NCBI RefSeq assembly: GCF_003334315.1
Contig: NZ_QOWR01000047.1
Source of the DNA: Escherichia coli
GTDB taxonomy: Bacteria; Pseudomonadota; Gammaproteobacteria; Enterobacterales; Enterobacteriaceae
Strand: one strand, 5' to 3'
Length of the DNA stretch: 37,104 bases
Shown: one piece after another, positions 1 to 37,104 of the stretch
Numbering within the stretch: position 1 is the first letter of the stretch
Layout: the number at the start of each line of letters is the position of its first letter
Made by a program: the position numbers and the translations under genes
The notes under the pieces: model-generated
Told to the model about the DNA's origin: nothing
The model's database searches: none
What the model saw: the letters and a program-made list of their open reading frames with translations, nothing else

Positions 1-108
1 AGGCAGCACCTGGCACGGCTGGGACGGAAGTCGCTGTCGTTCTCAAAATCGGTGGAGCTGCATGACAAAGTCATCGGGCATTATCTGAACATAAAACACT
101 ATCAGTAA
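1..108 (+). CDS. insB: IS1 transposase InsB, C-terminal fragment (5' partial)
   Basis: Frame 1 from position 1 translates [35 protein letters not shown]-stop, which I recognise as the InsB C-terminus; stop codon at 106-108. Confidence 0.75.
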
Positions 109-123
109 GTTGGAGTCATTACC
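1..123 (+). mobile_element. IS1 insertion sequence, terminal ~123 bp including terminal inverted repeat (element continues off the left edge)
   Basis: Positions 1-123 match my recollection of the IS1 right end (...CTGAACATAAAACACTATCA-TAAGTTGGAGTCATTACC) almost base for base; element terminus ...GGAGTCATTACC ends at 123. No search run. Confidence 0.85.
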
Positions 124-1102: not shown

Positions 1103-1770
1103 TCCTTCCTCAATCTTGAGTAACCCCGTCGTTGAAGGGTTACTCAATTCATCCTGATTATACGCACTGCCATGGTGCAACTGCTTCAAATTAAAACTCT
1201 GGTCTGACTTCAAATAATTATCATATTATTTATTTGCGTAACGGGATATCAGAAAAAGATATTTTCCTCATTAATTTATTAGGATGTTTACATCGGATTT
1301 GTGATTAAGCGTGGTATTATTTATTAGCGAAATGTTTCTCTCTTGATTTTTTGCTCATTCATCAATTTTTCTTATTTTAAATTTTCAATCCCTTTGGGGA
1401 TTGACTTCTCTTTAGGGTAATTGATAGCCGTTAACTGACTGTTTTATGAGAAAAAGTGATATAACTTTTTATTCATTGCATAGCAAAAAATGTGATATTG
1501 CACGCACTATGTAATAACTTCTCCCACTGGCCTGGAACAACTGAACTTATTGAACTATGTTAGAAACTACGCCAGTTTAAGTATCTGCCTGAACTGGCAA
1601 GGTTAAGCACAATGATATATCGGCGCGTATTCCGTTGCATAAGTGTGCAAAAAAAGTGGAAGACGTATCGAGATTTGTGCGTCTGATCGAGACATGTTTA
1701 AAAATGGCTTGCCATAATTAACGTTGTATGTGATAACAGATTTCGGGTTAAACGAGGTACAGTTCTGTTT

Positions 1771-1914
1771 ATGTGTGGCATTTTCAGTAAAGAAGTCCTG
1801 AGTAAACACGTTGACGTTGAATACCGCTTCTCTGCCGAGCCTTATATTGGTGCCTCATGCAGTAATGTGTCAGTTTTATCTATGTTATGCCTGCGGGCGA
1901 AGAAAACAATCTAA
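1771..1914 (+). CDS. yobF: YobF, 47-aa small protein co-transcribed with cspC
   Basis: Manual translation from ATG 1771: [47 protein letters not shown]-stop (TAA 1912-1914); 12 nt upstream of cspC. Confidence 0.85.
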
Positions 1915-1926
1915 GGAATTTTTCAA

Positions 1927-2136
1927 ATGGCAAAGATTAAAGGTCAGGTTAAGTGGTTCAACGAGTCTAAAGGTTTTGGCTTCATTACTCCGGCTGATGG
2001 CAGCAAAGACGTGTTCGTACACTTCTCCGCTATCCAGGGTAATGGCTTCAAAACTCTGGCTGAAGGTCAGAACGTTGAGTTCGAAATTCAGGACGGCCAG
2101 AAAGGTCCGGCAGCTGTTAACGTAACAGCTATCTGA
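1927..2136 (+). CDS. cspC: cold-shock-domain protein CspC (69 aa)
   Basis: ORF track protein [37 protein letters not shown]... carries the RNP1 motif KGFGFI of the CspA family. Confidence 0.95.
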
Positions 2137-2182
2137 TCGAATCCACTGATCTGAAGTGTGAATACGCTTCAATCTCGCTATA

Positions 2183-2208
2183 AAGCCTCGTCGAATGCGA
2201 GGCTTTTT
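2183..2208 (+). terminator. intrinsic terminator downstream of cspC
   Basis: Hairpin GCCTCG-loop-CGAGGC followed by TTTTT (2204-2208). Confidence 0.6.
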
Positions 2209-2301
2209 ACTATGCTTTATCTTCGCTCCTGGCGTTCGGATATTTGCCCGCCGCGTGATTCGCGTTACACTTGCGGCCTTTAGTATCCTGCCGGAGTTGT
2301 C

Positions 2302-3111
2302 ATGTCTTTTTCCTGTCCACTTTGCCATCAGCCTCTTTCGCGTGAAAAAAACAGCTATATCTGTCCCCAGCGACATCAGTTTGATATGGCGAAAGAAGGG
2401 TATGTCAATCTGCTGCCCGTTCAGCATAAACGGTCTCGTGATCCGGGCGACAGCGCGGAAATGATGCAAGCACGCCGCGCATTCTTAGATGCCGGACATT
2501 ATCAGCCGCTGCGTGATGCAATTGTCGCCCAACTGAGGGAACGGCTTGATGATAAGGCCACGGCGGTGCTGGATATTGGCTGTGGTGAAGGGTATTACAC
2601 ACACGCATTTGCCGATGCGTTGCCCGAAATCACCACGTTTGGTCTGGATGTTTCGAAGGTAGCGATAAAAGCGGCGGCGAAACGCTATCCGCAGGTCACT
2701 TTTTGTGTCGCTTCCAGCCACCGTTTGCCGTTTTCCGATACCAGTATGGACGCCATAATACGTATTTACGCGCCGTGTAAAGCAGAAGAATTAGCACGAG
2801 TAGTGAAGCCCGGCGGCTGGGTCATTACTGCCACGCCGGGACCGCGACATTTGATGGAGCTGAAGGGGCTGATTTACAATGAAGTACATCTTCATGCACC
2901 TTATGCCGAACAACTGGAAGGTTTTACATTACAGCAGAGTGCGGAGTTGTGTTATCCGATGCGTCTTCGCGGTGATGAAGCCGTCGCATTATTGCAGATG
3001 ACGCCGTTTGCCTGGCGTGCGAAGCCAGAAGTCTGGCAAACACTGGCAGCAAAAGAAGTGTTCGACTGCCAGACGGACTTTAATATTCACCTCTGGCAGC
3101 GTTCTTATTAA
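2302..3111 (+). CDS. rlmA: 23S rRNA (guanine745-N1)-methyltransferase RlmA
   Basis: 269 aa; N-terminal Cys4 zinc ribbon (CPLCHQPL...CPQRHQFD) and SAM-binding motif [10 protein letters not shown] visible in the translation. Confidence 0.9.
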
Positions 3112-3674
3112 CCGTGGAAGTGCGTCCAGAGGATCTGGACGCCGATGCCGATCAGTACCAGCCCGCCGAGAATTTCCGCTTTTTTCCCAATAATTGAGCC
3201 GATAAAGCGACCAACCATCATCCCTAATGTTGACATAATCAAGGTTGCACAACCAATGGCCAATGCGGTCGCGATAATGTTGACCTGCAGGAAAGCAAGA
3301 CCAACACCCACAGCCATGGCATCCAGGCTGGTGGCAATCGCGGTGGTTACCAGTAGCCAGAAACCGTGTCGACGGCGCGGCTCTTCATCTTCATCATCTG
3401 CGCCACGAAAACCCTCAATAATCATTCGCCCGCCGAGGAATATCAGCAGCACAAACGCAATCCAGTGGTTCCATTCAAGGACAAACCGGCTGGCTAACAT
3501 GCCCATTCCCCAGCCGATCAGCGGCGTCAGGGTTTCGACGGCACCAAAAATAAGGCCGGTTCGCAATGCTTCAGAAAATTTCGGTTTATGGAGGGTGGCA
3601 CCTTTACCGATTGATGCAGCAAATGCATCCATCGACATACCAAACGCAAGAAGAACAGTAGCAGTGATATTCAT
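3108..3674 (-). CDS. mntP: manganese efflux pump MntP (188 aa)
   Basis: Start placed at the internal ATG (plus 3672-3674) giving [21 protein letters not shown]..., which is 188 aa; the 206-aa track ORF extends 18 codons upstream. Multi-pass membrane protein with an acidic loop ([14 protein letters not shown]). Confidence 0.88.
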
Positions 3675-7776: not shown

Positions 7777-9333
7777 ATGGAATTCTTAATGGACCCCTCA
7801 ATTTGGGCGGGGCTACTCACGCTTGTTGTTCTCGAAATTGTGCTGGGTATCGATAACCTGGTCTTCATCGCCATTCTTGCTGACAAACTGCCGCCAAAAC
7901 AACGCGATAAAGCGCGTTTGCTGGGGTTATCACTGGCGCTGATTATGCGTCTGGGGCTGCTGTCGCTGATTTCATGGATGGTCACGCTGACCAAACCGCT
8001 ATTTACCGTCATGGATTTCTCCTTCTCCGGACGCGACCTGATTATGTTGTTCGGGGGGATATTCTTGCTGTTCAAAGCAACAACCGAACTGCATGAACGG
8101 CTGGAAAACCGCGATCATGATTCCGGCCACGGTAAAGGCTACGCCAGTTTCTGGGTGGTCGTCACACAGATTGTCATCCTTGACGCCGTCTTCTCGTTGG
8201 ATGCGGTAATTACTGCAGTAGGGATGGTTAACCATCTGCCGGTGATGATGGCGGCGGTAGTGATTGCGATGGCGGTTATGTTGCTGGCATCCAAACCGCT
8301 GACGCGATTCGTTAACCAGCACCCCACGGTGGTGGTGCTCTGTCTGAGCTTCCTGTTAATGATTGGTCTGAGTCTGGTGGCAGAAGGTTTCGGTTTCCAC
8401 ATTCCGAAAGGTTACCTGTATGCCGCGATTGGCTTCTCGATCATCATCGAAGTGTTTAACCAGATTGCGCGTCGCAACTTTATTCGTCACCAGTCGACTT
8501 TGCCGCTGCGAGCGCGTACTGCCGATGCCATCCTGCGTTTGATGGGCGGGAAACGTCAGGCCAATGTTCAGCACGATGCCGATAACCCGATGCCGATGCC
8601 GATCCCGGAAGGTGCATTTGCCGAAGAAGAACGTTACATGATTAACGGCGTACTGACGCTGGCGTCGCGTTCTCTGCGCGGGATCATGACGCCGCGCGGT
8701 GAAATAAGCTGGGTTGACGCTAATCTCGGGGTCGATGAAATCCGCGAGCAGCTGCTCTCCTCACCGCACAGCCTGTTCCCGGTATGTCGCGGTGAACTGG
8801 ATGAAATCATCGGAATCGTACGTGCTAAAGAACTGCTGGTGGCGCTGGAAGAGGGCGTTGATGTGGCGGCGATTGCTTCGGCGTCTCCGGCGATTATCGT
8901 CCCGGAAACCCTCGATCCGATCAACCTGCTGGGCGTGCTGCGTCGCGCTCGCGGGAGCTTTGTTATCGTGACCAACGAGTTTGGTGTGGTACAAGGCTTG
9001 GTCACGCCGCTGGATGTGCTGGAAGCCATTGCGGGTGAATTCCCGGACGCTGACGAAACGCCGGAAATCATTACTGATGGTGACGGCTGGCTGGTAAAAG
9101 GCGGTACAGATTTGCATGCCTTGCAGCAGGCGCTTGATGTTGAGCACCTTGCCGATGACGATGATATCGCGACGGTCGCGGGCCTGGTGATCTCGGCAAA
9201 TGGTCACATTCCCCGTGTGGGCGATGTGATTGATGTAGGGCCACTGCATATCACCATCATTGAAGCCAATGATTATCGTGTTGATCTGGTTCGCATTGTT
9301 AAAGAGCAACCGGCGCACGATGAAGATGAGTAA
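7777..9333 (+). CDS. yoaE: TerC-family membrane protein with CBS and CorC/HlyC domains, YoaE
   Basis: 518-aa ORF; N-terminal polytopic membrane domain plus soluble C-terminal half; divergent from manX as in K-12. Confidence 0.9.
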
Positions 9334-9336
9334 GCG

Positions 9337-10935
9337 TTAACGTAACGGCATAATGGGCGTGATATGTCCATTATGCCGGGCGGGCGGCGGTTGGCTGCCC
9401 GCCAGCCATTTGGGAAAATCACGTAGCGGCATCGGCTGTGCGTACAAATACCCTTGCAAAATATGCACGCCATGACGGCGCAAATACTTCGCCTGTTCTT
9501 GCGTTTCCACGCCCTCCGCCACCAGTTCAATATTCAGTCTTTGCCCCAGCGCGATGATGATATCGGTCACCGTCGAGTTAACCGCGTCAGAACCTATAGC
9601 TGCGGTAAATGACTTATCAATTTTCAGCACGTCAGGACGTAATGTTTCAAGCCAGGAAAATGAACTGTTGCCGGTGCCGAAGTCATCAATCGCCAGTTTG
9701 ACGTTTTTACGATGTAGCTCGCGGGCAATCCGATAATCAACATCCAGTAAGGCATCGCGTTCGGTGATTTCGAGGATCAGTTGCTGAATCGGGTGAGCGC
9801 TAAACCAGTACTGATTGAGATCTTTTATCAGCACACCACGGCGAAAATGGCTGGGTGCGACGTTAATGCCAACATGAAACTGACTACTCATCGGGAAAAC
9901 ATGGCGCTGACGAATGGTTTCTGCCATCACATAGCGGGTCAGTGGCACAATTAAATGATGTTCTTCCGCGATAGGAATAAACACATCCGGTGAAATCCAG
10001 CCCTGACGCGGATTGTTCCAGCGCAGCAAAATCTCTACACCAATACATTGCTGGCTGCGCGCATTAAGCAAAGGCTGACAGAACAATTCGAACTCATGTT
10101 GCGCCAGGCCCAGATTGATTTCGCGGGAAAAGCTCATCCGGTAAGCGGTCGCCAGCCAGGCGATGTAGCCCACCAGTAAACTTAGCAGCACCGCCAGCGG
10201 TAATTGTGTTGGAAGATAGTGCCATGCCAGCGCCGTAGCCCCCGGACCATTAACGTTAATGGTAAAAGGAAAGCGTTGCGAAGAAACCTGATAGTTTTCA
10301 TTGTCTTCAGGTTGCGGAAGGGAATCTACCAGCCCATTACCATAGAGCAAATGCCGTTTGTCCACCGTCAGGCTGGCGCTACTGATTTGCGGCAGTTGTG
10401 GCTCAAGGAGCATTGCCGTCAGTAAGTCGATGTTAATCATCTCCATGACCCCAGCATTGCTACTGCCCGCTGCAGGCGTCCATTGAATCAAAACCGGACT
10501 GCCTTTAATCAGGGCACGGTCGATCGTCAGGCGTAAAAGTGGTTGCGGTGCAGGAAGTTCAGCCAGAATGTCCACGACGGGCACATTGCGATAACCAAAA
10601 ATGCTGGAGCAATAGAGTGTGCCGTCTTGCACCAGGCCAATGGATCGCACAGTTTGGAGTTTTGCCGCCTGTTTACGTAATGGCAAATGGGCGACAGAGC
10701 AGGGCAGACCAATCAGCGGAAGCAAGACTTCGCTACCTGCCTGTAGGGGAAGCAGTACTTTATCTAATTCCTCTACAGCGTGATTGGCGAATTGTACTAC
10801 CCGTTGTTGATTTAAGTTACGCTGTGAAATAAATCGCACGCTCAGGGTCGAAGCGAGCGTAACGAGTGCGCAAATCGTACAAACAATCATTCGATTACGG
10901 CGATAGGTTTTAATGATCCGTTGTGCTTTTTGCAT
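9337..10935 (-). CDS. pdeD: c-di-GMP phosphodiesterase PdeD (YoaD), membrane sensor with EAL domain
   Basis: DDFGTG motif (LAIDDFGTGNSSFSWL) typical of EAL domains; start placed at the second in-frame ATG (MQKAQRII..., 532 aa) rather than the 542-aa maximum; start choice is uncertain. Confidence 0.85.
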   Translation of the reverse strand: MQKAQRIIKTYRRNRMIVCTICALVTLASTLSVRFISQRNLNQQRVVQFANHAVEELDKVLLPLQAGSEVLLPLIGLPCSVAHLPLRKQAAKLQTVRSIGLVQDGTLYCSSIFGYRNVPVVDILAELPAPQPLLRLTIDRALIKGSPVLIQWTPAAGSSNAGVMEMINIDLLTAMLLEPQLPQISSASLTVDKRHLLYGNGLVDSLPQPEDNENYQVSSQRFPFTINVNGPGATALAWHYLPTQLPLAVLLSLLVGYIAWLATAYRMSFSREINLGLAQHEFELFCQPLLNARSQQCIGVEILLRWNNPRQGWISPDVFIPIAEEHHLIVPLTRYVMAETIRQRHVFPMSSQFHVGINVAPSHFRRGVLIKDLNQYWFSAHPIQQLILEITERDALLDVDYRIARELHRKNVKLAIDDFGTGNSSFSWLETLRPDVLKIDKSFTAAIGSDAVNSTVTDIIIALGQRLNIELVAEGVETQEQAKYLRRHGVHILQGYLYAQPMPLRDFPKWLAGSQPPPARHNGHITPIMPLR

Positions 10936-15229: not shown

Positions 15230-15651
15230 ATTCTTATCCTTAAAATTAACCATGTTATCGATAAGACTATATATGACCTTAATTTGCATCTAATATCAAA
15301 GGGATTATAACGATATGGCACGAGTTAACCTGTTGACATTCAGGTGTTTTAAAGGTAGCAGCTCATGGTGTGTTATCCAGTAAGATGGAGAAATTTAACG
15401 GTCAGTCCTCACGCTATAACCAGATTATTCAGCTAAGAAAGAAAACCAGAGTTGCTAGTCAGAGGGCGAACACAACGGCATGGTTATGGTTATTTATATA
15501 GTTAGTTTTATAGATAAAATTGAAATTATAAAAATAAATAATGAATTAGCAGGAGCATCAACAGGTAATATCTTAATCTCTGGTCGATTTATGTTAAACC
15601 GACCAGTATTATCGATAAATTATCGTCTGACTTATTTTGCTTCGATAAAGC

Positions 15652-15996
15652 TTACACCGCAGCCACAATCTTAATTTCAACTTTATACTTCGGGTTCATC
15701 AAACCCGCTTGTACCGTGCAGCGCACCGGCGCATGACCCGCGACAACCCAGGCATCCCACGCTTTATTCATCGCCGCGAAGTCGTTTTTATCGGCCAGGA
15801 AAATGGTGGCATCCAGAATGCTCGATTTATTGCTGCCCTGTTTTTCCAGCACGGCATCAATCTGCGCCAGCGTGTTGGCGGTTTGCTCAAAGGCATCGGC
15901 GTCGAGGTTTTCCGGTACACCAGTGTAGTAGAGCGTGTTGTTGTGGATTACCACATCAGACCAGCGGGCTTCAGCATCGATACGAACGATAGTCAT
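15652..15996 (-). CDS. yoaB: RidA/YjgF-family protein YoaB
   Basis: Start at MTIVRIDAEARW... gives 114 aa; the adjacent in-frame Met one codon upstream is equally possible. Confidence 0.85.
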   Translation of the reverse strand: MTIVRIDAEARWSDVVIHNNTLYYTGVPENLDADAFEQTANTLAQIDAVLEKQGSNKSSILDATIFLADKNDFAAMNKAWDAWVVAGHAPVRCTVQAGLMNPKYKVEIKIVAAV

Positions 15997-19616: not shown

Positions 19617-21302
19617 TTGAAGAAGGTTTGGCTTAACCGTTATCCCGCGGACGTTCCGACGGAGATCAACCCTGACCGTTATCAATCTCTGGTAGATATG
19701 TTTGAGCAGTCGGTCGCGCGCTACGCCGATCAACCTGCGTTTGTGAATATGGGGGAGGTAATGACCTTCCGCAAGCTGGAAGAACGCAGTCGCGCGTTTG
19801 CCGCTTATTTGCAACAAGGGTTGGGGCTGAAGAAAGGCGATCGCGTTGCGTTGATGATGCCTAATTTATTGCAATATCCGGTGGCGCTGTTTGGCATTTT
19901 GCGTGCCGGGATGATCGTCGTAAACGTTAACCCGTTGTATACCCCGCGTGAGCTTGAGCATCAGCTTAACGATAGCGGCGCATCGGCGATTGTTATCGTG
20001 TCTAACTTTGCTCACACACTGGAAAAAGTGGTTGATAAAACCGCCGTTCAGCACGTAATTCTGACCCGTATGGGCGATCAGCTATCTACGGCAAAAGGCA
20101 CGGTAGTCAATTTCGTTGTTAAATACATCAAGCGTTTGGTGCCGAAATACCATCTGCCAGATGCCATTTCATTTCGTAGCGCACTGCATAACGGCTACCG
20201 GATGCAGTACGTCAAACCCGAACTGGTGCCGGAAGATTTAGCTTTTCTGCAATACACCGGCGGCACCACTGGTGTGGCGAAAGGCGCGATGCTGACTCAC
20301 CGCAATATGCTGGCGAACCTGGAACAGGTTAACGCGACCTATGGTCCGCTGTTGCATCCGGGCAAAGAGCTGGTGGTGACGGCGCTGCCGCTGTATCACA
20401 TTTTTGCCCTGACCATTAACTGCCTGCTGTTTATCGAACTGGGTGGGCAGAACCTGCTTATCACTAACCCGCGCGATATTCCAGGGTTGGTAAAAGAGTT
20501 AGCGAAATATCCGTTTACCGCTATCACGGGCGTTAACACCTTGTTCAATGCGTTGCTGAACAATAAAGAGTTCCAGCAGCTGGATTTCTCCAGTCTGCAT
20601 CTTTCCGCAGGCGGTGGGATGCCAGTGCAGCAAGTGGTGGCAGAGCGTTGGGTGAAACTGACCGGACAGTATCTGCTGGAAGGCTATGGCCTTACCGAGT
20701 GTGCGCCGCTGGTCAGCGTTAACCCATATGATATTGATTATCATAGTGGTAGCATCGGTTTGCCGGTGCCGTCGACGGAAGCCAAACTGGTGGATGATGA
20801 TGATAATGAAGTACCACCAGGTCAACCGGGTGAGCTTTGTGTCAAAGGACCGCAGGTGATGCTGGGTTACTGGCAGCGTCCCGATGCTACCGATGAAATC
20901 ATCAAAAATGGCTGGTTACACACCGGCGACATCGCGGTAATGGATGAAGAAGGATTCCTGCGCATTGTCGATCGTAAAAAAGACATGATTCTGGTTTCCG
21001 GTTTTAACGTCTATCCCAACGAGATTGAAGATGTCGTCATGCAGCATCCTGGCGTACAGGAAGTCGCGGCTGTTGGCGTACCTTCCGGCTCCAGTGGTGA
21101 AGCGGTGAAAATCTTCGTAGTGAAAAAAGATCCATCGCTTACCGAAGAGTCACTGGTGACTTTTTGCCGCCGTCAGCTCACGGGATACAAAGTACCGAAG
21201 CTGGTGGAGTTTCGTGATGAGTTACCGAAATCTAACGTCGGAAAAATTTTGCGACGAGAATTACGTGACGAAGCGCGCGGCAAAGTGGACAATAAAGCCT
21301 GA
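19617..21302 (+). CDS. fadD: long-chain-fatty-acid--CoA ligase FadD
   Basis: Start placed at in-frame TTG 19617 ([14 protein letters not shown]...) giving 561 aa; AMP-binding motif [12 protein letters not shown]. Confidence 0.93.
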
Positions 21303-21320
21303 GCGTTAAGTCAGTCGTCA

Positions 21321-21347
21321 GACGCCGGTTAATCCGGCGTTTTTTTT
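21321..21347 (+). terminator. intrinsic terminator downstream of fadD
   Basis: ACGCCGG-TTAAT-CCGGCGT hairpin followed by seven T. Confidence 0.6.
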
Positions 21348-24729: not shown

Positions 24730-26175
24730 TCAGTTGTCGCCTTTGAATACGGTTCCCGCAGGGAGCACTGGCGTTTTTTCCAGGGCTTCAACCGGTGTCT
24801 GCGGGAGATAATGTTCAACTTGATGAGCCGGAATGTCGGCGTAATCCTGTTTCAGCCAGCGAATAAACCCGCCGACTTTCACCAGTAAAATGACGAGGAA
24901 GGGAAGGGCTGTGAGCACGACGGTGGTTTTCATCGTTTCCAGCGAAGCACCGGTAAACAAGATGGAAAGCGGGATCAGAGTGATCACCACGCACCAGAAA
25001 AGACGCAGCCCACGGTCAGGATCGTCACCTTCCTGGAGATTACGCGTACTGGTCGCCGCCATGGTGTAGGCCACTGCATCCATATGCGAGGCAAGGAAAA
25101 TAATCATCACGCCCAGGTATGCGGCGAGGAACAATTTACCGGCTGGCAACGACATCAGAACTTGCTGTACAGCTGTTTCGCCGCCCAGTGTTTCCAGCAC
25201 CTGTGGGACGTTGATTACGCCATTGATAAACTGATGAATGGCATAGCTTTCCATTACGCCAAAGAAGAACCAGCAACCGACGGTGCTGCCGAGGATCAGT
25301 CCCCAGATAACTTCTTTAATCTTACGACCGCGGGAAACGCGGGTGACAAACATTGCTACGCCAGGGGTGTATGAGATCCACCACAGCCAGTAGAAAACGG
25401 TCCAGTTGCGGGTAAATGAACCATCGCCAAGCGGATCGGTGAATAAGCTCATTTGCAGGAAGTTTTGCGTGGTCAGGCCGATGGCATTGATGATGCTGTT
25501 GGTAATAAATTCGGTTGGGCCGACAATCAGCACCAGTAATGGCAGCAGGAACGCGCCCCAGCCAACCATTTTGCTCAGACGTTGCAAACCGTTGTTGATA
25601 CCAATCCACGAGCTTAGGCAAAAAATGCCGCCGGAAAGCAGGATCACAAATGCCTGCACGGTGAAGTTATCGGGTAAACCGGTCAGCGCGGAAAGCCCAC
25701 GGGTAAAGGTTGCTGCGGTAACAACAAGGGAAATGGTCAGTGCGCCGACAGTGGCGATCAGGAACATCAAATCGACCAGTTTTCCCCATGGGCCTTGCGG
25801 GCGAACGCCGGTAATAGCAGCAATAATGCCGGAAAGGCTCAGACCTTTGTTTTTCCGCACATGAAAGTGATAAGCCATGATTAATGAGGCCAGCGTATAA
25901 GTTGCCCAGGCGCTGATGCCCCAGTGGAAGAAAGAGTAGGGAACGCTAAATTCGAGTGCCTGTTGTGAACGCGGTGCGATATTTAATCCAGGCGTTTGAT
26001 AATAATAGGCCCATTCAGCAACCCCCCAATAAAGCGTAGAAGAACCTAAACCGGCACAAATAAACATAAACAGCCAGGAGAGCGTGCTGTATTCCGGTTT
26101 TCCTTCGCCAAGACGAATATTGCCGTATTTACTGGTGGCTAAATAAATCACCAGTCCCATTGCCAGCAAAACCAA
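24730..26175 (-). CDS. yeaV: BCCT-family transporter YeaV
   Basis: 481 aa; the segment [22 protein letters not shown] aligns with the CaiT/BetT region I recall; the first codon is TTG (plus 26173-26175) with a stop 16 codons upstream. Confidence 0.85.
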
Positions 26176-26319
26176 TACCTGTACGGCGGAACCTAACGTA
26201 CGCGTAACAAAATTTGCATGTTACATAAATTAAACAATTAAGAATACGGAAAGCCATAAAACACGAAACGGAAACAATAAAAGGTGAAATGACGCAGGTT
26301 ATTTACTGCAAAGAACGAA

Positions 26320-32508: not shown

Positions 32509-33690
32509 TTAGCGAATTTCTTTGTCTCTCCCGGCGCAAAGTCCGAAAATCGCCATCAGTAGTGAAAGTATGGCAACACCCATAAGTGGTACAGACCAGT
32601 TACCGTTAGCATCGTGTATTTTACCCATCAGCGGCGGCCCACAGGCTGCCAACAAATACCCGACGGATTGTGCCATCCCCGAGAGTGCCGCCGCCTGATG
32701 CGCAGAACTAGCCCGCAGACCAATGAACGTCAACCCCAGTATCATTGTTGCGCCGGAACCAAAACCGAAAAGCAGAGTCCAGGTGATCGCGTGCGCTGGC
32801 ATAAAGCAGAGCCCAACCGCGCCCACTGCGCACATCAAGGCAACGAACGCTGCAATACCACGCTGATCTTTCACATGATGTAAGAAAAGTGGGATCAGCA
32901 AACCGGGTGCTGCTGTGGCTAGTTGCAGCAAACCATGCAGTGAACCCGCCTGTGCTTCGCTATAGCCGTGACTGATGAGGATCGCCGGAAGCCAGCCAAT
33001 AATCACGTAATAGACCAGTGAGTTGATCCCAAGAAACAATGTGACCTGCCAGGCAAGCGGCGAACGCCAGATACCCCGAGTATGTAAGGCGCGCGAGGTA
33101 CTCAAATTTGCATGTTGTTGACTTCGCCACTGTGGCAGCCATAAAAAAAGAGCCAGCAGAGGAAAACACATCAGCATGAGCAACGCGCCTTGCCAGCCAA
33201 AACCGTTCAAAGCCAGCGGCACGACCATAGCCGATCCCAGTGCCGCTGCAGCTCCCATTGTCAGGGAATATGCGCCGGTAAGTCTGGCGACGGAATGAGG
33301 GAAATCGCGTTTAATTAATCCTGGCAGTAAGACATTGCCTAATGCAATCCCACCGCCAATGACCGCTGTACCGCCAAATAATAAGTAAGGCGAAGGGAGA
33401 GAGCGAATTGCGATACCAGCACAGATCAAAAGTAACGCGGCAAACAGGCTACGTTCCATACCAAAACGTCGCGCTACCGGGGCAGCCAAAGGTGAGATTA
33501 GCGCAAAGGCCAATAATGGCAGGGTGGTCAATAAGCCGGTTTGCGCTGTCGTCAGCGAGTAAGCGGAACGAATCGTATCCAGTAACGGTGCTGCGCCGGT
33601 AAAGGTGACGCGTAATGTTGTGGCAATCATCAGAATGCCAGCGATAAGGACAATCCTGTTTTTGCCGCTTAATGAAGTTGAACAGGTCAT
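32509..33690 (-). CDS. nimT: MFS transporter NimT (YeaN)
   Basis: 393-aa polytopic ORF; divergent from the AraC-family gene as in K-12. Confidence 0.88.
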   Translation of the reverse strand: MTCSTSLSGKNRIVLIAGILMIATTLRVTFTGAAPLLDTIRSAYSLTTAQTGLLTTLPLLAFALISPLAAPVARRFGMERSLFAALLLICAGIAIRSLPSPYLLFGGTAVIGGGIALGNVLLPGLIKRDFPHSVARLTGAYSLTMGAAAALGSAMVVPLALNGFGWQGALLMLMCFPLLALFLWLPQWRSQQHANLSTSRALHTRGIWRSPLAWQVTLFLGINSLVYYVIIGWLPAILISHGYSEAQAGSLHGLLQLATAAPGLLIPLFLHHVKDQRGIAAFVALMCAVGAVGLCFMPAHAITWTLLFGFGSGATMILGLTFIGLRASSAHQAAALSGMAQSVGYLLAACGPPLMGKIHDANGNWSVPLMGVAILSLLMAIFGLCAGRDKEIR

Positions 33691-33786
33691 ATGCTTCTCA
33701 TTGTTACAAACGAGGCTGTACCTTACCGTTTTTATTGTTATGTTGAATCAAGCTAAAATGACAAATTATCGCTAAGTTCGGACAAA

Positions 33787-34608
33787 ATGATGCACAGGTT
33801 GAATCTCAATGGCTATGAACCCGACCGACACCATGAAGCCGCGGTCGCATTTTGTATTCACGCCGGAACGGATGAGTTAACCAGTCCTGTACATCAGCAC
33901 CGCAAAGGACAGCTGATACTGGCGCTACATGGTGCAATTACCTGTACGGTGGAAAATGCTTTGTGGATGGTGCCGCCACAATATGCGGTTTGGATACCGG
34001 GCGGGGTGGAACATAGCAATCAAGTAACAGCTAATGCTGAACTCTGTTTTCTGTTTATCGAACCCAGCGCAGTGACAATGCCGACAACATGTTGCACATT
34101 GAAAATATCGCCCTTATGCCGGGAATTAATTTTAACCCTGGCAAACAGGACGACGACTCAGCGTGCTGAGCCAATGACCCGCAGATTAATTCAGGTCCTG
34201 TTTGATGAACTCCCTCAGCAGCCACAACAACAGCTGCACCTGCCCGTTTCTTCTCATCCTAAAATCCGCACGATGGTGGAGATGATGGCGAAAGGGCCTG
34301 TCGAGTGGGGGGCATTGGGGCAATGGGCTGGCTTTTTTGCGATGAGTGAACGCAATCTTGCCCGACTGATAGTAAAAGAGACGGGGTTGAGTTTTCGCCA
34401 GTGGCGTCAGCAGTTACAGCTGATTATGGCGCTTCAGGGATTAGTGAAAGGCGATACTGTACAGAAAGTTGCTCATACGCTGGGGTATGATTCAACAACG
34501 GCCTTTATTACTATGTTTAAGAAAGGCCTGGGGCAAACGCCAGGCCGATATATTGCGAGATTAACTACTGTTTCCCCACAATCAGCGAAACCAGACCCGC
34601 GGCAATAA
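33787..34608 (+). CDS. nimR: AraC-family regulator NimR (YeaM)
   Basis: 273 aa; cupin-like N-terminal half and C-terminal AraC-type HTH region. Confidence 0.88.
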
Positions 34609-35011
34609 GCGGCCCAACCGGTACGCCGCGAAACAGCGCTACGCCTAAAACAGTGCCTACCAGCAGCCCGGCGACCAGTTGCGGCTGGCTGCCCATTAAC
34701 GTCACGCCGCGCCCACCCAGCCAGGAGACAATCACGCCTACTGCAATCGCCACCAGTGATTTCCAGTTCAGAAACGAGTGAATCAAGGTTGAGGGCGGTA
34801 GCGTCCCGCTGGCGATGGGGGCCATAACGCCAATCGTCAGAATGATTATCCCGATACTTAGCCCCTGTTTTTCAATCCACGGAAAAAAGGTGCTTAACGG
34901 TGTGACGCGGACAATGATTAACACCAGAATTGAAACGGCGACAGTGGTGTTATGACTGATAAAGCCCAGCGCAGCTAACCCGAGCAGGATCAGCAAAGTG
35001 ACATCAAACAT
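34565..35011 (-). CDS. yeaL: UPF0756 membrane protein YeaL
   Basis: 148-aa polytopic membrane ORF; its 3' end overlaps the 3' end of nimR by 44 nt. Confidence 0.85.
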
Positions 35012-35112
35012 CGTGGTTTCCTTGCCAAAAAATAATAAGCCTGCTTACTTTACGCTTGCTGCAGGAAGGAAGTAGAAAATCTTTACGTTTTTTGCATAAA
35101 AAATCAGGCGAA

Positions 35113-35130
35113 CTGTCATCAAACTGCCAT
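35113..35130 (+). promoter_or_regulatory. Pho-box-like direct repeat upstream of yoaI
   Basis: CTGTCAT-CAAA-CTGCCAT, about 50 bp upstream of the yoaI ATG, approximates the PhoB box as I recall it (CTGTCAT-A(A/T)A(T/A)-CTGTCA(C/T)). Confidence 0.4.
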
Positions 35131-35180
35131 TTGTGCACGCTAACAATAACGTGAAAACAGCTATCTCCCGGGGGCATGCT

Positions 35181-35285
35181 ATGAACGATCAAATGTTTGT
35201 CGAGACACTGATTATCACGTCATCGTTTTTTGCCATTGCTGTTGTACTGGTTTTGTCCGTTCTTCTTATCGAACGGACCGGCTAG
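35181..35285 (+). CDS. yoaI: YoaI, 34-aa hydrophobic peptide
   Basis: Manual translation [34 protein letters not shown]-stop (TAG 35283-35285). Confidence 0.7.
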
Positions 35286-35789
35286 TTACGCAGTGCGGCG
35301 GAAATTGACCAGTTCTGGTTGCGCAATGCGCAAATAATCCGCGGTTTTCAAAATAACGGATTTATCCAGCATGCCTGCATTGAAGGCGATTTCATCAAAT
35401 CGTTCGAAGAGTAGAGGGTCGGCAACCAGTTTGAGTTTTGGATGGAAGCTGAAAGGGGGGATCGCGCCGAAGACACAGCCTGTGAGTTCATCGACTTCCG
35501 CCGGGCTGGCCAACGAAGCGCGTAATCCGCCTATATGGCTGGCGAGTTGGCTCAGATCGGCCTGTTGATCGGCTGCGAGGATCGCCAGAACATGTTGATT
35601 TACGCCATTGCCTTTGACTTTACATACCAGTGCCTTAGCACCCTGGCCTAGAGCGGTGCCACGAATTTCTGACACCGCTTCACATTTACCTACCGCTTCA
35701 TGGGTAACGACGCGGAAGTCAGCACCTTCTTGTGATAATAAAGCGATTAACCGCTGATGCGTCACGCTTCCTTTAGCCATTTCAGTCAT
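35286..35789 (-). CDS. yeaK: YbaK/ProX-type aminoacyl-tRNA deacylase YeaK
   Basis: 167-aa ORF; its stop codon abuts the yoaI stop. Confidence 0.85.
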   Translation of the reverse strand: MTEMAKGSVTHQRLIALLSQEGADFRVVTHEAVGKCEAVSEIRGTALGQGAKALVCKVKGNGVNQHVLAILAADQQADLSQLASHIGGLRASLASPAEVDELTGCVFGAIPPFSFHPKLKLVADPLLFERFDEIAFNAGMLDKSVILKTADYLRIAQPELVNFRRTA

Positions 35790-35831: not shown

Positions 35832-37027
35832 TCATGAACGGCTGTTTTTGTTCTGCTTATTGACATATAAACGCTCATCGGAAGCTTTATACGCATCATG
35901 TAACGTATCGTTTTCTTTCATCGCGTAAATACCGGAAGAGAAGCCGATCTCTTTCTGCGGCGCGATATGTTGCAGACGTTTTTCGATACGTTCAGGCAGT
36001 TGTGCTGCAATTTGCGGCGTCGAATCGACAAGAATGATGCAGAATTCATCGCCACCGAGTCGGATGGCATAATCACTTTTACGAATCGACTGTTTAATCG
36101 CCTGAGCTAATAACGTAATCGCTAAATCCCCCTCCTGATGACCGAGGGTGTCATTTATTTGCTTTAACTTGTCCATGTCAATAGCAATAAACATCACCGA
36201 AGAACCGGATTGCACCAGTTTCTGCAACCGCTGCTCCAGTTCAGGGGTTAAAATTTTGCGATTATACAGTCCAGTCATCGCATCACTAATATTTTCTCGC
36301 GACACATTTTGGTATAAACGGAAGTGCATCCGCACCATATTCAGCAAAATTAACGCCGTCAAAATCCAGAACAGAACGCTTTTCCACGAAGACGTGATAA
36401 AGTAAAGAATATCAATGGATAACGAGACACGAATGCCGCCCGGTAAGTCATGGACGTAACTGACATACTGGAACAGATTATCTTCGCTCTGGTTGATGAT
36501 AATGTCGCGCCCCGAATCGGTATCGGTTAGCGTGACATTGAGAAAACGCCAGAGGAGAGGGCGGTCATGAGTATAAAAGATATTCCGCAGATTGTTTTTG
36601 TTAATATCCAGCAGCACAATCCCTTTTAGCTGCCCTGCGACATATACCGGCGTCAGCAAACTCATCACGTTCTGTTTAGTACGCTGATCCTGGTAAATGC
36701 TCGACAATACGGTACGCCCGGTAAATACCTTTTCAATATCTTTGCGATCGATGCCAATACTTCCTGACTGCAGGAAGGACCAGTTATTCATCGCAAAGTA
36801 TTCAACATTAACCGGCTCATAAAAATAGACATAGCGGTCATTGAGATCGAGATAATAGTGAAATTTCTCTTCGGCCATCCCAAGACCTGAACCGTAATCA
36901 TCCTGGTGGCGGTTGCCTTCCACTGCCTGATCAAAAGCGGGTAATAGTGCTGCAGCTTCCACAATTGTGTCGCAGTCAGTGGATGCGGTTTGTAGTGTGC
37001 CGCGTAAGCCCGGGTATTTATGGGCAG
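35832..37027 (-). pseudogene. dgcJ: diguanylate cyclase DgcJ (YeaJ), 5'-truncated by an IS insertion
   Basis: GGDEF motif (RLGGDEFCIILV) and one TM segment. The ORF cannot extend upstream: stops occur in all three minus frames within 37039-37067, and the first 12 codons of the 410-aa track ORF are IS-derived. About 398 native codons remain versus about 496 aa recalled for K-12; a periplasmic-type sensor region with no upstream TM or signal peptide. Confidence 0.7.
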
Positions 37028-37104
37028 TGGATTGGCCCCTATATTTCCATACACTTTTTATCACTTAACCCATTACTGGTTCGCCGCCGCAGATATTCCC
37101 GTGG
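37028..37104 (-). mobile_element. IS3-family (IS2-like) insertion sequence, terminal 77 bp (element continues off the right edge)
   Basis: Minus strand reads ...PREYLRRRTSNGLSDKKCMEI-stop then GGTTAAGTGATAAAAAGTGTATGGAAATATAGGGGCCAATCCA, close to the IS2 OrfB C-terminus and right inverted repeat as I recall them (roughly 85% similar by eye, not identical). Terminus at plus 37028. Confidence 0.75.

Follow-up and report, generated by a model that had tools for sequence, protein, structure and literature searches.

The nimR (yeaM) and yeaL genes converge and share 44 nt at their 3' ends. With a probability of about 85%, this is a genuine annotated tail-to-tail overlap that was formed by a 3' extension of nimR into yeaL and that contains no engineered dual-coding element. 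One base change would suffice, which in YeaL is the conservative substitution I145V and in nimR turns the stop at codon 265 into CAA (Gln). The pair lies in a 37,104-nt stretch of DNA that was analysed as a whole and is referred to here as the window. The features that define the overlap are as follows.

33787..34608, plus strand: nimR (yeaM) CDS, found as an ORF and annotated in RefSeq, encoding an AraC-family regulator of 273 aa, with the stop TAA.
34565..35011, minus strand: yeaL CDS, found as an ORF and annotated in RefSeq, encoding a DUF441 (PF04284) membrane protein of 148 aa, with the stop TAG.
34565..34608, both strands: the tail-to-tail overlap of the nimR and yeaL coding sequences, 44 nt.
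34579..34581, plus strand: nimR codon 265, CAA (Gln), a stop-codon site in most other genera.
34606..34608, plus strand: the nimR stop TAA, complementary to Leu135 (CTT) and Ile136 (ATT) of yeaL.

The 44-nt overlap was described by an earlier note made from the sequence, and it was recovered at the same coordinates both in the ORF listing, where the yeaL stop TAG appears as CTA on the plus strand at 34565-34567, and in RefSeq. In each gene the overlap takes up the stop, 13 whole sense codons and 2 nt of one more, corresponding to residues 261-273 of NimR plus 2 nt of codon 260, and to residues 136-148 of YeaL plus 2 nt of codon 135. The first codon positions of the two genes face each other, and the second position of either gene faces the third of the other. 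Furthermore, the 1.4-kb nimR-yeaL region was found in 5,407 of 5,426 complete genomes, and RefSeq gives an 822-nt nimR, a 447-nt yeaL and the 44-nt overlap in all six of the complete E. coli genomes inspected, which were picked across 97.4-100% identity. It could be argued that the overlap is an artefact of annotation or sequencing, the true nimR or yeaL being shorter and its end displaced by a frameshift or a mis-called stop. In its favour, NimR is shorter (264 aa) in most genera carrying nimR, and many long convergent overlaps in databases were reported to be 3'-extension misannotations (PMC2478687). Such an artefact is scarcely credible here, since stops, unlike starts, need no prediction, nimR first meets an in-frame stop at 34606, the same two ORFs occur in six independent genomes, the 273-aa form is common to 13 Citrobacter-type loci, and YeaL matches DUF441 through the last position of the model. 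The earlier proposal that a non-conserved C-terminal extension would imply a shorter true ORF therefore fails, the stop being unambiguous and identical across the E. coli genomes inspected; a non-conserved tail does not mean a mis-annotated ORF.

The origin of the overlap was traced through codon 265 of nimR, which is read from two codons of yeaL. The first base of codon 265 pairs with that of yeaL codon 145 (GTG, Val), and its second and third bases pair with the final two bases of yeaL codon 144 (ATT). When these two yeaL codons are xTT or xTC and then ATN (Ile145), nimR codon 265 is TAA or TGA. The comparison covered 80 yeaL loci across Enterobacteriaceae, one genome per species, about 55 of them with a convergent nimR; YeaL orthologues were thus taken from 80 loci and NimR orthologues from about 55. 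Residue 145 of YeaL was Val wherever the overlap was 44 nt (15/15 loci) and Ile wherever it was 17 nt (27/27 loci), a perfect correlation of Val145 with loss of the nimR stop at codon 265. The ancestral-type state would have been a NimR of 264 aa with a 17-nt overlap and a stop opposite yeaL codons 144/145. With that stop lost, translation runs nine more codons to the TAA at 34606-34608. There, codon 135 of yeaL is CTT or CTC in 15/15 loci of the 44-nt group, which this stop itself defines, and the nimR stop is correspondingly TAA or TGA; the TGA form, from CTC at codon 135, occurs in Citrobacter. The Ile136 codon of yeaL in this group is ATT, with ATA in one locus. A related case is the C. 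amalonaticus group, in which a synonymous change of yeaL Leu143 from CTG to CTT makes a nimR stop one codon past 265.

NimR lengths were obtained by translating each locus from the start to the first stop, and the overlaps were distributed as follows.

17-nt overlap: NimR of 264 aa (263 aa in four Leclercia/Silvania loci); 27 loci.
44-nt overlap: NimR of 273 aa; E. coli and 13 Citrobacter-type loci.
20-nt overlap: NimR of 265 aa; the C. amalonaticus group.
21-nt and 0-nt overlap: NimR of 265 and 258 aa; Salmonella diarizonae and arizonae, respectively.
6-nt overlap: NimR of 258-263 aa; Trabulsiella.
45-nt overlap: NimR of 276 aa; Yokenella.
No overlap, 5-nt gap: NimR of 262 aa; Buttiauxella.
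No overlap, gap of 122-181 nt: NimR of 266-270 aa; three further loci.

One further value, -1 nt, occurs among the compared loci. The 17-nt state was found in Klebsiella, Enterobacter, Raoultella, Kluyvera, Leclercia, Lelliottia, Huaxiibacter, Silvania and Pluralibacter, and also in 'E. coli E69', whose NimR is 89% identical, and in C. youngae ATCC 29220. From this taxonomic distribution, which is unrooted, we infer that the change went from 17 nt to 44 nt; the presence of the 17-nt state in the last two genomes indicates that the change occurred or reverted more than once. Overlaps of 119-281 nt that were at first obtained for Leclercia, Kluyvera, Lelliottia and others were rejected, tblastn having aligned through stops, and the real value is 17 nt. 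In Citrobacter werkmanii NBRC 105721, NimR is 257 aa long (...GRYLS*) and ends 4 nt short of yeaL; the sequence past this early stop still aligns with the 273-aa form, and the short nimR is probably due to a recent nonsense or frameshift change. The contig labelled 'Chryseobacterium sp. 18061' and the MAG labelled 'uncultured Raoultella sp.' carry Citrobacter/Pluralibacter-like yeaL-nimR of Enterobacteriaceae, which suggests that these assemblies are mislabelled or contaminated.

The overlap at the end of yeaL does not depend on nimR. In genera that lack nimR, an unrelated convergent gene for an amino-acid ABC-transporter permease overlaps the yeaL 3' end over 17-21 nt, as found in Kosakonia, Phytobacter, Cedecea, Dryocola, Entomohabitans and others (13 loci, around 3427..3447 of each), and the permease tail ...RRxxLPAN(Q)* is likewise read from the yeaL antisense strand. 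Since an unrelated permease also overlaps yeaL, the overlap is attributable to how tightly genes are packed where yeaL ends, and not to NimR. Within Escherichia, nimR-nimT is absent from E. albertii, E. whittamii and two other lineages; in the one of these that was inspected, yeaO follows yeaL on the same strand after 60 nt. Escherichia sp. MOD1-EC7003 retains a nimR remnant (2432..2616) in which residues ~2-42 are joined to 250-273, and this remnant still overlaps yeaL.

Of the two partners, YeaL is the constrained one. Its DUF441 domain spans residues 7-145 and model positions 1-139 of 139 (E = 3e-44); since the domain reaches residue 145, the overlapped codons 135-148 fall within a conserved membrane domain, and the last 14 codons would encode the final transmembrane helix. 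The YeaL C-terminus, ending in [IFL][IV]GK[QS], is almost invariant throughout the loci compared, and in the 44-nt group its amino-acid entropy over the overlap codons is 0.00. The facing of the codons places the yeaL wobble base opposite the second position of nimR, so that every synonymous change in yeaL alters a NimR residue. In agreement with this, the NimR-tail residues of the 44-nt group vary where the yeaL wobble bases vary. A test for dual coding gave no depression of synonymous variation in yeaL, the synonymous codon entropy being 0.74 in the overlap vs 0.83 in codons 1-120, and 0.74 corresponds to the 18th percentile of 14-codon yeaL windows. In the last five yeaL codons, synonymous diversity was 0.44-0.55 with nimR vs 0.98 without it, in a small and phylogenetically non-independent sample, and this lower diversity, the sole hint of a constraint from nimR, could reflect a weak constraint by NimR residues 260-264 or by the stop. 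Overall, YeaL is the constrained partner and the NimR tail its passive mirror. A practical consequence is that synonymous recoding of yeaL codons 135-148 would change the length of NimR, and that a C-terminal knockout or tag in either gene damages the other.

NimR was described as a single-target regulator of nimR/nimT with 273 aa (PMC5934670). Pfam places an AraC_binding/Cupin_2 domain at residues 22-147 and HTH_18 at residues 180-257, the latter being encoded just outside the overlap.

34324..34557, plus strand: region of nimR coding for HTH_18 (residues 180-257), ending 8 nt before the overlap.

A model made by AlphaFold2 from 21 orthologues has a mean pLDDT of 84.7 and a last helix at 252-260, and its block-mean pLDDT falls to 47 over residues 261-270 and 37 over 271-273. 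These low-pLDDT residues, 261-273, are precisely those encoded in the overlap. The model thus places the end of the functional fold at about residue 257-260 and predicts 261-273 to be a low-confidence tail read from the yeaL antisense strand. When the translations to the first stop were aligned, NimR was conserved across loci through ...GQTPGRY and diverged beyond that in both sequence and length, with SAKPVPPQ as the tail in some loci and other sequences elsewhere. A check of both C-termini for conservation, as the earlier note had proposed, therefore gave a divided answer: the YeaL end is almost invariant, and the NimR extension varies across genera.

Selection of the tail for a protein function of NimR, in residues 265-273 or in the whole of 258-273, as a degradation tag, a contact for RNA polymerase or part of a ligand response, is very unlikely. 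The 273-aa NimR does persist in most Citrobacter and all through E. coli, its stop is kept as TAA or TGA, and the only triplets seen at yeaL codon 135 are CTT and CTC, the preferred CTG being absent. However, the tail is outside the Pfam domain and of low confidence in the model, it is absent in most genera, and its residues in the 44-nt group vary exactly with the yeaL wobble bases. No locus reads past the Leu135/Ile136 stop, beyond which the next in-frame nimR stop is 32-73 codons on; retention of the Leu135/Ile136 stop shows only selection against an extension of that length, and use of the 15/15 count at codon 135 as evidence for selection was rejected as partly circular. The stop at this position fits ordinary selection against a long antisense-encoded tail. 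Its lack of conservation across genera shows the NimR tail to be an evolutionary by-product.

Neither the length nor the occurrence of the overlap calls for a special explanation. With 8 stops in the nimR frame over the 149 codons antisense to yeaL, 14 open codons in a row are unremarkable and close to the chance expectation. Three of the ten convergent junctions in the 37-kb window overlap (by 4, 23 and 44 nt), and two more have gaps of 0-3 nt. The nimR/yeaL overlap is routine, and its length is not above chance. Convergent overlaps were reported to make up ~7% of the overlaps among well-characterised genes in 338 genomes; stop-codon loss with subsequent 3' extension is the established model of their origin (PMC2478687). 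The other close junctions of the window are listed here; altogether a gap of 3 nt or less was found at 5/10 convergent junctions.

3108..3111, both strands: convergent rlmA and mntP, 4-nt overlap.
15652..15674, both strands: a hypothetical ORF (15480..15674) convergent with yoaB, 23-nt overlap.
9333..9337, both strands: convergent yoaE and pdeD, 3 nt apart.
35181..35285, plus strand, and 35286..35789, minus strand: convergent yoaI and yeaK, 0-nt gap, the stop codons abutting.

The window itself is bounded by insertion sequences. Its first 122 nt are an IS1 end (100% identity), which at 1..122 replaces the kdgR 3' end of a reference strain, and its last ~78 nt (about 37027..37104) match the IS3-like element ISEc36, by which dgcJ is truncated to an ORF of 410 aa (35832..37064) compared with the full gene of 1,491 nt. 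At the Rfam gathering threshold two known features were found: the cspA thermoregulator model over yobF-cspE (1751..2211, 135.7 bits), and the sRNA SroD at the fadD 3' end and fadD-rnd spacer (21261..21346, 115.2 bits); the scan of the window returned nothing at the nimR/yeaL locus. In the closely matching reference strain L6-21, the annotation gives yeaV as a pseudogene that lacks its N-terminus and has an internal stop (24730..26211 of the window by L6-21 coordinates).

At the RNA level, each mRNA must include its own stop, so that the complete mRNAs share a complementary stretch of at least 44 nt. The earlier statement that the transcripts must overlap is thereby borne out, and the pair has been published as overlapping: yeaL-nimR is among 165 convergent overlapping-transcript pairs of MG1655 found by ExcludonFinder (NAR 2025, PMC12288877), which examined 58 MG1655 data sets and lists the pairs with overlapping RNA-seq transcription units in at least 50% of them. 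The same list contains yeaK-yoaI and yeaO-yoaF (PMC12288877); the gap between yeaO and yoaF is 21 nt (32085/32107). A literature search naming both yeaM and yeaL returned gene lists only, and the Term-seq supplements of Adams et al. 2021 and TERMITe 2025 had no entries for yeaL or nimR. The following sites bear on where the two transcripts begin or end.

34546..34517, minus strand: candidate intrinsic terminator of yeaL inside nimR, a hairpin followed by TTTCTTAA.
34609..34780, plus strand: untranslated stretch past the nimR stop with C in excess of G, antisense to yeaL.
35176..35203, minus strand: promoter-like site upstream of yeaL, TCGACA-16-TAGCAT, 9/12 consensus matches.

Promoter-like matches of the last kind were no more numerous than in shuffled sequence. 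The candidate terminator shows that the earlier claim of there being no room for one was too strong, for the hairpin with its TTTCTTAA begins 19 nt past the yeaL stop; a CDS overlap does not exclude a terminator, which can sit in the partner ORF. Its stem, GGCCTGG/CCAGGCC at 34546..34525, has 7 bp (6 GC) and an 8-nt loop, with a folding energy of -13 kcal/mol. All its pairs are kept in Escherichia, most Citrobacter and Salmonella; in the remaining genera the stem is degraded. Covariation is weak, with 80.5% of cells paired and one pair with double changes in 45 sequences. In a null of synonymous recodings, 5.9% gave a site equal to or better than the observed one, which is not significant, and 35% gave a hairpin site of -8 kcal/mol or better; the corresponding value for overall folding energy was 0.43. 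In this AraC-family motif, the Lys-Lys and Gly/Pro codons favour a structure of this kind on the antisense strand. As a selected yeaL terminator the hairpin is a candidate only. If yeaL ended at this nimR-embedded hairpin, the complementary stretch would extend to ~92 nt (34517-34608).

On the plus strand, no hairpin plus T-run was found from 34561 to 35300 under relaxed criteria, and no terminator-like site from 33600 to 35300. Nor does the yeaL hairpin have the form of a bidirectional terminator, since on the plus strand it is followed by GATATATTGCG, with no U-run. Over 34540-34780 the GC skew is -0.12 to -0.28, and the stretch at 34609..34780 is a possible Rho loading region. With no intrinsic terminator candidate, nimR transcription would probably end by Rho action or by polymerase collision within the yeaL antisense region; head-on collision of RNA polymerases has been described at convergent gene pairs (bioRxiv 10.1101/2022.10.23.513370).

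These transcripts raise the possibility that the overlap was selected as an excludon, in which the two convergent transcriptions repress each other, through colliding polymerases and a 3' duplex cut by RNase III, so that inducing one gene would silence the other. Such selection is unlikely. The presence of the pair among the 165 convergent excludons in at least 50% of the 58 MG1655 RNA-seq sets (PMC12288877) speaks for it, as do the overlap of the yeaL 3' end being kept in many genera (17-44 nt with nimR and 17-21 nt with the other partner), the lack of an intrinsic terminator candidate for nimR, and the possible yeaL terminator inside nimR, 'overlapping terminators' being taken by ExcludonFinder as a functional sign. 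However, the overlap length drifts from 0 to 45 nt, with no overlap in Buttiauxella and others, and nimR-nimT is missing from several Escherichia lineages with an unchanged yeaL. The hairpin is matched by 5.9% of synonymous recodings and its covariation is weak, half of the window's convergent junctions are equally tight, a sign of general genome compaction, and no report of reciprocal expression or RNase III cleavage at yeaL-nimR was found in the literature. A broader proposal, that the yeaL 3' end is a conserved 'landing pad' forcing antisense coupling on its partner, with a terminator in the partner ORF, reciprocal tuning and a coding-sequence excludon, is likewise unlikely; if true, the partner would be nimR in Escherichia, Citrobacter, Klebsiella and Enterobacter, or the ABC permease gene in Kosakonia, Phytobacter and Cedecea. 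Under the preferred reading, a 3' extension of nimR by stop loss, any antisense or excludon interference would be a side-effect, whether used or not.

Part of this picture is already known, as the CDS overlap is in standard annotation and the transcript overlap in a published list. What is new is the exact substitution, yeaL I145V being nimR stop265Gln, together with a pre-existing 17-nt overlap. The locus offers a worked example of how an overlap originates, in which a conservative I145V change in YeaL lengthens NimR by nine disordered residues.

Three known systems can be compared with nimR/yeaL. The excludon (Sesto et al. 2013, as cited in PMC7154746) has as its hallmarks reciprocal expression and processing by RNase III. 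nimR/yeaL resembles it as a convergent pair with no intergenic terminator, whose transcripts are reported to overlap and which is itself listed as yeaL-nimR. It differs in that excludons are defined by overlapping UTRs and reciprocal expression, whereas nimR/yeaL is a CDS overlap listed on the grounds of transcript overlap. Bidirectional terminators with programmed collision of RNA polymerases (Wang, Watters, Ju and Liu, bioRxiv 10.1101/2022.10.23.513370) likewise have a stem-loop at a convergent junction, and the stem-loop of nimR/yeaL could position head-on collisions. However, this hairpin lies inside nimR with a T-run on one side, the plus strand continuing with GATATATT, and its action on that strand would stop nimR ~60-85 nt before the stop codon. 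The closest likeness is to the 3'-extension convergent overlaps formed by stop-codon loss (Rogozin et al. 2002, as cited by Pallejà et al. 2008, PMC2478687). In both, two real and independently conserved genes are joined when one loses its stop and the next in-frame stop falls within the neighbour; the overlap is shorter than 60 nt and confined to close relatives, and one partner is constrained while the other is free. Every tested criterion of this class was found at nimR/yeaL, which is not essentially different from it, its particular feature being the earlier 17-nt overlap that pre-existed the extension.
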